Positions 18,094 to 42,512 of a stretch of 57,970 nucleotides of DNA are shown in pieces. This DNA is from Promethearchaeota archaeon (GTDB lineage: Archaea; Asgardarchaeota; Lokiarchaeia; Sigyniarchaeales; SOKP01). The notes under the pieces were generated by a model, which saw only the letters and a list, made by a program, of their open reading frames with translations, was not told the origin of the DNA and searched no databases. The stretch spans positions 1 to 57,970 of the forward strand of contig JAUVXW010000030.1 of assembly GCA_030603385.1 (NCBI GenBank). Direction: 5' to 3'. Position 1 is the stretch's first letter; each line of letters begins with the position of its first letter. A program made the translations under genes and the position numbers.

Positions 18094-18796
18094 GGAGAAA
18101 TCAGAATTGATTTGTGGTATAGACGAGGCTGGTAGAATATAATTCATTTCGAATTCTGTACCAAAAGGTCCCGTTCTTGGTCCTCTTGTTTTGTGTGGTG
18201 TTTGTTTTAAAAAAGATCAACTATCATATTTAGTTGAAATAGGTGTAAAAGATTCTAAGAAATTAAGTGCTAAAAGAAGGAGTACACTAGCAAAACTAAT
18301 TAAGGATAAGTGTCATTCTTTTAAAATTCTTATAGTTCCTCCAGCAGAAATTGATCAAAGGGAAGAAAAAAGAATTACATTGAATAAATTAGAAGAATTA
18401 AAAATGGCTGAAATTATTAGAGAATTAAAACCTAGCTCAATATATATTGACGCCGTCGATGTAAATGAAGATAGATTTAGAGATTCAATACTAAATCTTT
18501 TAGATTATAGTCCAGAAGAAATCATTTCAAAACACAAGGCTGATGATCTATTTCCCATAGTATCAGCGGCCTCAATCATTGCCAAGGATAAAAGAGACAC
18601 CTTAATTGAGGAAATGAAGGAAAAATATGGAGATTTTGGTTCGGGATATCCTTCGGATAAAAGAACTATTGATTTCCTTCGAAAATGGATAAAGAAGAAT
18701 AAAAAGATACCACATTTCGCTAGAAAATCATGGGCTACAACAAAAAAAATATTAGAAGAAGAACTATCTAACAGAAAAATAACTGATTTTTTCTGA
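18071..18796 (+). CDS. rnhB: Ribonuclease HII, interrupted by a 30-nt BHB intron (join 18071..18135, 18166..18796)
   Basis: LICGIDEAGR | GPVLGPLVLCGV is split by a 30-nt insert with in-frame TAA. GVKDSKKL, KADD..VSAASIIAK, GSGYPSD motifs. Start is TTG 18071 or 18107. Confidence 0.92.
18136..18165 (+). other. Putative BHB intron in rnhB mRNA (30 nt)
   Basis: Central helix TGGT/ACCA, 3-nt bulges AGA and AAA, internal stem ATATAATTC/GAATTCTGT. Confidence 0.85.
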
Positions 18797-36066: not shown

Positions 36067-36168
36067 CGCAGATGGAGGGACTCGAACCCCCGAGCGCTCA
36101 TGCGCACCAGCTCACTTGAATGTAAGAAATACTCAAGGCTGGCGTCTTACCAGCTAGGCTACATCTGC
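36067..36168 (-). tRNA. tRNA-Ser(TGA) with 19-nt intron at 37/38 (36113..36131)
   Basis: Acceptor GCAGATG/CATCTGC, anticodon stem CCAGC/GCTGG, long variable arm. Intron helix CTTG/CAAG with bulges AG|T and TG|A. Confidence 0.88.
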
Positions 36169-40926: not shown

Positions 40927-41725
40927 TTTGTTCCCATTATGATCTGTTAAGATTACTTGATGAATATTTCCTGATGAGTCTAAATATCCTAGAACATAAC
41001 CTTTTTCAGCGATCTTGTAAGGATCATTACTACTGAATGGGAATATTCACACCACTCAATATTTAAGATTACCACAAAAGGCAAGAGATTTGCCCTCTAT
41101 TTATCCACCCATCATCCTTATTTGTTCAACAATTATCGTCATTTTGACTTGGAAGACATATATGCGCAATATAAACGTCATTCCTCACGGGTAACACTAA
41201 TAAGATATCTCCTGTTTTTTTTCTTAGGTATCCTAATTTTTAGCCTGTTAGCAGGTGCCATTATTCTAATAGGTATTAGTCTCAAAGGAATATTATGGGT
41301 ACCTCAAATTTCAACTCAATGCTCTATTCAATGTCATAGGTGCCTATTGGCATTGATGTGATAAGGGATAAATATTCGTAGCAGTAAGGGTTTCATTTGA
41401 CGAAAAGCTGGGGGAGAACTAGAGTAAAAGTTGTCTTGTAGTTTAGTAAAATAAGAATTTCCCTTTTTTCTCCATATAAATAATAAGGTTTCTTAGGATT
41501 GTTTATTGCCTCTAAACTTTTTTGTTTAAAATCTCTAAATTTTTTGGTTTAGTGTTTTGTCTTAATTTTTATATTTTAGTATTTTTTATATAGACAAAAT
41601 ATAAATTTCATTAATTATTTCATTGTTCATAATAGAATTAAAAAGAAATGTAAAAAAATAACATAAATTAAAAGAATTAAGTAAATGTTTAAGGATTTTA
41701 ATCCAAATAAGGAGGTTATTAAAAA

Positions 41726-42512
41726 ATGTTTCAGCAAGCAGGACGCGGGTATGATATGGCTATTACGCAATTCTCACCCGAGGGACGGCTTTTTCAAGTT
41801 GAGTATGCTATTGAAGCCGTTCGAAGAGGAACAACCGCAATAGTGTGTCGGAATAAAAGCTCTGTTGTGTTTGCGGTTGAGAAAAAGAGCTCTGAGCTTC
41901 AAGAACAAAGCATGGGTTCGGAAAAAATATTTAAAATTGACGACCACATTGGCGTAGCTATTGCAGGATTGACCGCGGACGCTAGAGTACTAATCTTAAG
42001 TCCCACAGGCGACTGAGAGTACTAATCGATCGCGCCCGCGTTCAAGCTCAAGTTAATTTATTGAATTATGATGAGAAAATCTCTGTGAAGGACAGCACGA
42101 TAAATATTTGCGAGTATAAGCAAGTATTCACTCAAAACTAGGCGGAGCTTATCCGTTAGTGAGCCATGCCGGTGTGCGACCTTTTGGAGTTTCTTTTCTG
42201 ATTGCTGGAATTGATGCAAATGGACCCTCCTTATATCTCACTGATCCGAGTGGAGCTTTTTGGAATTATTTCGCCTTCGCTATCGGATCGGGTTCGACTG
42301 AAGCAAGGGCTTACCTTGAAGAACATTATAATAAAGATATGAGTGATGAGGAATTAAAATTATTACCCTTAAGAGCTCTCAAGGAATTGATGGATGATAA
42401 TTTAGATAAAAATACATGTGATGTAGCTTTTATATTGAAAGAGGATAAAACGTTTAAACTTCTAAGTTTAGATGAAGTGGAAGAATTACTAAGTAAATTA
42501 TCAGATTCCTAA
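41726..42512 (+). CDS. psmA: Proteasome subunit alpha with two BHB introns (join 41726..41992, 42025..42136, 42166..42512; 241 aa)
   Basis: [20 protein letters not shown]; spliced [10 protein letters not shown]|IDRARVQAQ...KQVFTQ|[10 protein letters not shown]; TDPSG, AIGSG. Located upstream of sdo1-rrp4. Confidence 0.93.
41984..42027 (+). repeat. 12-bp direct repeat AGAGTACTAATC (41984..41995 and 42016..42027)
   Basis: Exact repeat spanning both splice junctions of psmA intron 1. Confidence 0.95.
41993..42024 (+). other. Putative BHB intron 1 in psmA mRNA (32 nt)
   Basis: Central helix GTAC/GTAC, bulges TAA and TAA, inner stem TCTT(A)AGTC/GACTGAGA. Confidence 0.87.
42137..42165 (+). other. 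Putative BHB intron 2 in psmA mRNA (29 nt)
   Basis: Central helix CTCA/TGAG, bulges AAA and CCA, inner stem CTAG(G)CGGA/TCCGTTAG. Confidence 0.87.

Follow-up and report, generated by a model that had tools for sequence, protein, structure and literature searches.

A putative tRNA-type mini-intron in an Asgard archaeal gene for the proteasome alpha subunit is probably spliced from its mRNA

How can a proteasome alpha subunit be produced from a gene whose reading frame is broken twice? The question is raised by psmA in the window, the 57,970-nt stretch of DNA analysed here, which is the entire contig C17 of a genome of the Promethearchaeota (Asgard archaea). This genome, G000, is a MAG of 58 contigs and 3.9 Mb with 30% G+C and about 7% contamination. 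The gene (41726-42512, plus strand; Pfam families PF10584 and PF00227) is interrupted at 42137-42165 by 29 nt, its protein runs on in two other frames after exon 1, and calls of uninterrupted ORFs yield only fragments of 97 and 130 aa. When this insert and an earlier one (41993-42024) are left out, the coding sequence is 726 nt long and encodes 241 aa, the length that a first-pass annotation had proposed. The Pfam profile positions covered by the three exons (Table 1) show that the joints neither lack nor duplicate residues. With a probability of roughly 0.86, we consider the 29 nt at 42137-42165 to be a BHB (tRNA-type) mRNA intron that is spliced at the predicted sites, cleavage and ligation both being deduced from sequence comparisons.

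Table 1. Features of psmA with its two putative introns, and inserts of the same kind in other genes of G000 (positions refer to the window unless a contig is named)
Feature	Position	Strand	Remarks
Shine-Dalgarno-like AGGAGGT	41710..41716	+	9 nt 5' of psmA start codon; read from sequence
psmA exon 1, 89 codons	41726..41992	+	Pfam Proteasome_A_N and Proteasome profile positions 1-60; translation agrees with orthologs
Putative intron 1, 32-nt BHB insert	41993..42024	+	not present in any ortholog examined
psmA exon 2, 37 codons + 1 nt	42025..42136	+	Pfam Proteasome profile positions 61-96
Central BHB helix of intron 2, exon strand CUCA	42131..42134	+	4/4 pairs with 42160-42163; invariant in all four carriers
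5' bulge AAA	42135..42137	+	predicted cut 42136/42137 from BHB geometry
Putative intron 2, 29-nt BHB insert	42137..42165	+	exactly 29 nt extra relative to G019 ortholog; homologous same-site inserts at loci L106, L107 and L124
Inner stem-loop h'	42138..42159	+	4 bp, bulged G, 4 bp, 5-nt loop
Central BHB helix of intron 2, intron strand UGAG	42160..42163	+	pairs with CUCA
3' bulge CCA	42164..42166	+	predicted cut 42165/42166; third bulge base is an exon base
psmA exon 3 including stop codon	42166..42512	+	Pfam Proteasome profile positions 99-189; 97% amino-acid identity to G019
Putative 30-nt BHB mini-intron in rnhB, splits DEAGRGP motif	18136..18165	+	removal restores RNase HII motif GIDEAGRGPVLGPLV
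30-nt BHB insert, unknown protein	C55:17369-17398	+	census against G023
28-nt BHB insert, B12-binding-domain-like protein	C26:94206-94233	+	census against G023
31-nt BHB insert, Alba-like protein	C5:48565-48595	+	census against G023
37-nt BHB insert, uL11	C41:68091-68127	-	census against G023
30-nt BHB insert, thioredoxin, just before WCGPC site	C51:66051-66080	-	census against G023

The codons at the second interruption read ACT CAA AAC TAG in the frame of exon 2, with the in-frame stop TAG at 42139-42141, and the insert additionally shifts the frame; all the coordinates that the first-pass annotation had assigned to these features hold. In pre-tRNAs, the first bulge is immediately preceded by the exon strand of the BHB helix, and cleavage takes place behind the second base of the bulge. 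The cut rule applied here was derived from the 37/38 rule and from the anticodon-intron pair. The predicted cuts coincide exactly with the two ends of the 29-nt surplus over the ortholog of the related genome G019, and excision of 42137-42165 restores the peptide common to all orthologs, in agreement with the protein that had been predicted from removal of the insert. Removal of 42138-42166 would give an identical product because base 42137 equals base 42166. A BHB is defined as a helix of 4 bp with a bulge of 3 nt at each end, the two bulges being on opposite strands (PMC4090602). The helix of CTCA and TGAG, the AAA and CCA bulges and the inner stem that had been drawn for this site were all recovered, with 4/4 pairs in the central helix and 4+4 bp around a bulged G in the inner stem. 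The first two bases of the 3' bulge differ between carriers of the intron (CC, AC and AU). The outer exon-exon helix h comprises 2 pairs only in G000 (42129-30 with 42167-68); it likewise has 2 bp in the carrier G079 and 0 bp in two others, G073 and a JGI contig. Since the outer helix is this weak (0-2 bp), the motif is better described by the relaxed HBh' form than by the strict hBHBh' form and needs an endonuclease of broad specificity.

The likelihood of such a fit arising by chance was assessed with random or shuffled 29-nt inserts placed at the intron 2 site, any register giving the same product being allowed. The BHB pattern appeared in 40 of 400,000 inserts drawn with the base composition of the genome and in 94 of 400,000 shuffled versions of the intron, that is in about 1-2.4 per 10,000. 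Folding of the single sequence did not return the BHB at intron 2: the minimum-energy fold of the 56-nt region in G000 is a different structure (-13.2 vs -8.1 kcal/mol for the BHB) with an unremarkable z-score. A self-splicing group I or group II intron was also considered as the identity of the insert and rejected, given a length of only 29 nt and Rfam matches in the window that consist only of tRNAs; the ribozyme cores of such introns span hundreds of nucleotides and can be recognised with covariance models.

The first insert of psmA has the same architecture, with a GUAC/GUAC central helix (4/4 pairs), two UAA bulges, an inner stem of 5 bp and an outer helix of 2 bp, and its 76-nt region folds with z = -3.1. 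It is flanked by a 12-nt direct repeat (41985-41996 and 42017-42028), which is explained by the palindromic central helix and the identical bulges. The flanking exon sequences, through G+C-rich synonymous codons, can additionally pair with each other over about 11 bp. Both inserts fit a BHB at frame-restoring cuts and have no sequence in common, which bears out the earlier statement that they are alike in structure and not in sequence. The suggestion of independent gains is likewise supported, as the sequences are unrelated and intron 1 was found only in G000, the other carriers of intron 2 being without it. Further positions in psmA are occupied elsewhere in the family. A 30-nt BHB-like insert lies at ITQ/FSPEGR in G047 (L108), and another of 30 nt at GRGY/DMAITQ in G086 (L109) and G069 (L110), whose copies are distinguished in the central helix by one pair, G-U in one case and A-U in the other. 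Interruption of the gene at no fewer than four positions in the family also argues for independent gains.

Most relatives have a continuous psmA. The 39 orthologs fetched, some species being represented twice, are all uninterrupted, and about 115 of the 134 other family genomes give one continuous psmA match over the whole protein; the loci of G014, G064, G074 and G116 stop at contig ends and are uninformative for introns, and the ortholog of G006 is masked. In two genomes of the same genus, G073 and G079, the match breaks at residue 128, and in the DNA 29 nt are inserted at the codon that is interrupted in G000. Scanning JGI metagenomes for the pattern revealed a fourth carrier, contig Ga0209977_10000529. 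Intron 2 is found in 3 of the 54 genomes of the genus and is not a private, recent gain of G000: it is patchily present within the genus and, as discussed below, sits in a recombinant-looking tract. Neither psmA intron has a copy elsewhere in G000, and the 134 other family genomes contain no copy of intron 2 at up to 3 mismatches, which indicates that it is not a repeated mobile element.

Comparison of the carriers permits the structure to be followed while the sequence drifts. In an alignment of G000, G073 and G079, which represent effectively two lineages, 97.6% of the BHB cells are paired, compared with 26-50% when the partners are slid. Two inner-stem pairs change from C-G to U-A on both sides and one from G-U to A-U, with all cells paired in the three sequences; the central helix is invariant, and variation is seen in the loop and in those bases of the 3' bulge that belong to the intron. 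Unguided RNAalifold predicted the central helix, the 5' bulge and the inner stem, and the alternative fold of G000 was absent. The pattern of a structure that is kept while its sequence changes is seen in the four carriers, at the low power of a three-sequence alignment, in which 55 of 500 shuffles reach the observed covariation score. Three related assemblies that keep the insert site with compensating base changes indicate that the mRNA is very probably spliced. The proposal of a BHB intron at this site is therefore supported by the same-site insert in three other assemblies, by compensatory changes and by the constrained exons described below, the splicing itself being predicted from these comparisons.

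The insert is not the only one of its kind in the genome. In a census that made no use of the motif, tblastn was run against G000 with the ORFs in 1.2 Mb of G023, a genome of the same genus. Five clean inserts of 28-37 nt in other genes were detected (Table 1), and excision at the BHB cuts gave a gapless alignment across each junction. About five inserts per thousand genes compared suggests tens per genome. The insert in rnhB has a fully paired central helix (4/4), an inner stem of 3 bp followed by a mismatch and an outer helix of 1 bp. The reverse census identified one such insert in G023. At about position 335883 of the G023 chromosome (within L043), IPMH and NWGKDL are separated by an insert of 30 nt that is in frame and includes a stop codon, in a gene that is continuous in G000, so relatives have introns of their own. 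A scan of the whole genome that started from the motif collected 214,554 BHB candidates, which were passed through ORF joining and a codon-usage test and evaluated with canonical cuts and with cuts shifted by 1-2 nt. No excess of frame-restoring over off-by-one cuts was found in G000 by this route, since a signal of tens is hidden by chance joins, which number in the hundreds and arise at gene boundaries and in off-frame ORFs.

The tRNA genes of G000 were inspected as well. The tRNA-Thr(UGU) of the window (36067-36168, minus strand, 102 nt) has inserts of about 22 nt in the anticodon loop and of 13 nt before the T arm. When it was used to calibrate the cut rule, the strict criteria matched only one of the two inserts, with a different length. 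Aragorn reports only 13-18 tRNAs in the 3.9-Mb genome, which suggests that most tRNA genes are interrupted beyond its reach, in keeping with the heavily interrupted tRNA genes described for other Asgard classes. Among its calls is a putative tRNA with anticodon CUA ('tRNA-Pyl') and an 8-nt insert that, if real, might bear on the reading of TAG in G000.

Candidates for the enzymes of the reaction are encoded in the genome. There are two EndA-family proteins. EndA alpha (198 aa, contig C44) retains the catalytic Tyr, His and Lys and has a loop that we interpret as being of the Crenarchaea-specific type. Among solved structures in the PDB it is matched best by chains 3p1z_B and 3ajv_B; we take these to be the catalytic subunit of the Aeropyrum pernix heterotetramer. 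The other protein (200 aa, contig C9) is without the catalytic His and is classified on this ground as beta-like. The ligase RtcB is also present (contig C39, 558 bits). Asgard archaea are described as having an (alpha-beta)2 EndA with an L1 loop and broad substrate specificity (PMC5829648), and an enzyme of this type would agree with the weak outer helix of intron 2. Splicing could then proceed as follows. In the transcript, CUCA at the end of exon 2 would pair with the UGAG that lies shortly before the 3' boundary of the intron, producing the 4-bp central helix between two 3-nt bulges together with the 8-bp inner stem. The alpha/beta EndA would cut after the second base of each bulge, and RtcB would join the exons to create the codon AAU (Asn127) and hence the normal protein. 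Removal of intron 1 in the same manner would complete the message for the 241-aa subunit.

Public sequence data were searched for traces of the transcript and its product. None of the 24 runs listed, from marine sediment and cold seeps, contained half of the sampled words. The four runs examined gave fragmentary contigs of relatives, none of them spanning 41991-42021 or 42146-42176 and none with a joint, and the only run that was clearly RNA reached just exon 1 of a relative. No full-length protein identical to exon 1 was found among 5.8 billion proteins, where the best matches were uninterrupted relatives with 97% identity.

Other explanations of the inserts can be weighed against splicing. 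They could be unspliced and disabling, leaving psmA a pseudogene whose function has passed to an alpha paralog on contig C4. This idea draws on the predicted status of splicing and on the paralog itself, a second alpha-type protein with 43% identity. Relatives have such a paralog too, however, so it is not a replacement for psmA. The exons of the G000 gene show no other stop or frameshift and no relaxed constraint. Pairwise comparison of the carriers gives dS values of 1.3-1.5 (saturated) and an omega of about 0.06, a sign of strong purifying selection; omega against G019 amounts to 0.03-0.11, and all 136 residues that do not vary among about 30 orthologs are retained in G000, G073 and G079. 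A disabling insertion would not be kept next to intact exons over such divergence, with dS above 1 between the lineages. The exact fit of both inserts to a BHB at frame-restoring cuts, the compensatory changes in the stem and the occurrence of the same type of insert in uL11, thioredoxin, rnhB and further genes also speak against decay, and we regard a pseudogene as very unlikely. A regulatory reading, which we rate just as low, holds that EndA cuts the BHB while the exons are poorly rejoined, so that the element is a switch that destroys or limits psmA mRNA. The motif and the enzymes are there and ligation is a predicted step of the scheme, but the cuts exactly restore both the frame and a conserved residue, a precision that would be superfluous at a site of cleavage alone. 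Moreover, RtcB is encoded, and psmA is the sole ortholog of the main alpha subunit that G000 has.

Even less probable is programmed translational bypassing, in which the ribosome would pass over the 29 nt, or some other form of recoding that involves no RNA processing. In the bypassing of phage T4 gene 60, a stop follows the take-off codon and is itself followed by a hairpin. The stop in psmA comes directly after an Asn codon and before a hairpin, and the direct repeat of 12 nt around intron 1 would also suit such a mechanism. Yet intron 2 is without a landing codon that matches the take-off codon, and the conserved features are those of a BHB (the 4-bp exon helix and the two 3-nt bulges). Reading through the TAG would still meet TAG and TGA in a frame that is still shifted. 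Hardly any weight, finally, is given to an artefact of MAG assembly or binning. The genome does consist of 58 contigs with some 7% contamination, and none of the read sets examined spans the site. Against this, three further assemblies, each independent, have a homologous insert of identical length at that codon, which shows that the insert is not an assembly artefact, and a precise BHB would not arise twice in one gene in this way. Splicing of a BHB intron is thus the explanation with which we proceed.

The history of intron 2 may involve exchange between genomes. On the basis of psmA exon sequence, the nearest relative of each carrier is without the intron. The introns of G073 and G079 differ at 4 of 29 positions, and their exons show a pS of 0.61. 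Between G000 and its sister G019 (L004), dS is 1.3 and DNA identity about 80-87% from the start codon to about 42190, whereas beyond this point dS is 0.11 and identity 96-97%. The region upstream of psmA in G000 matches no relative, while the corresponding region of G019 shows conservation within the genus. The pattern resembles a breakpoint of recombination or rearrangement, located some 30 nt past the 3' end of intron 2, and the simplest reading would be that G000 acquired a divergent tract holding both introns. More tentatively, and at somewhat less than even odds, BHB introns in the protein genes of this genus may form a live population that turns over, with intron-bearing allele segments spreading between species by homologous recombination and gain continuing. 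This view is based on the colonisation of psmA at at least four positions, on the patchy presence of intron 2 among carriers that are not nearest relatives by exon sequence, and on a synonymous divergence from the sister that is about 10 times higher in the intron 2 tract than in the rest of psmA.

The closest known system is the BHB intron of cbf5, the gene for the aCBF5 pseudouridine synthase, in Crenarchaeota (Watanabe 2002; Yoshinari 2006; Yokobori 2009, PMC2738675). Beyond cbf5, introns in other archaeal genes were not confirmed and are referred to as 'predicted' (Yokobori 2009, PMC2738675). In the literature searched, splicing of an archaeal coding sequence by the endonuclease is confirmed only for cbf5 of Crenarchaeota. 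Both cases concern a short, BHB-defined intron within a coding sequence, and in both the presence or absence of the intron is lineage-specific. Removal of the cbf5 intron by the tRNA-splicing endonuclease was shown experimentally, whereas for psmA it is predicted. Membership in the family of cbf5 pre-mRNA introns was rejected, since the host is psmA; the kind of intron is the same. Unlike cbf5, psmA is a proteasome alpha gene and belongs to an Asgard phylum, the Promethearchaeota. It carries two introns, with at least four psmA intron positions across the family, and these are among several in housekeeping genes of G000.

The tRNA introns of Asgard archaea share with those of psmA the motif and presumably the enzymes, and in both cases lineage-specific gains have occurred repeatedly without shared families of intron sequences; the tRNA genes of G000 look heavily interrupted, too. 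The difference lies in the host, which for psmA is an mRNA, so that the cut must keep the reading frame and precede translation. [quoted passage not shown] A functional parallel is offered by HAC1/XBP1 splicing through IRE1, where a short intron is likewise removed by proteins only, independently of the spliceosome, and the exons are sealed by tRNA ligase or RtcB. The XBP1 intron is 26 nt long. The nuclease IRE1 recognises stem-loops, in contrast to the BHB that EndA is predicted to cut in psmA. HAC1/XBP1 splicing is a regulated stress switch, and psmA is likened to it by intron removal only.

If the introns are spliced as proposed, an Asgard archaeon depends on two splicing events in a core housekeeping gene before the protein can be made. 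Confirmation at the RNA level would show that gene callers truncate or miss genes of this kind, and the availability of close genomes with and without the intron would make gain and loss of BHB introns tractable. It would also mean that splicing of mRNA before translation is routine in the closest archaeal relatives of eukaryotes, which would bear on ideas that tie intron load to the separation of transcription and translation.
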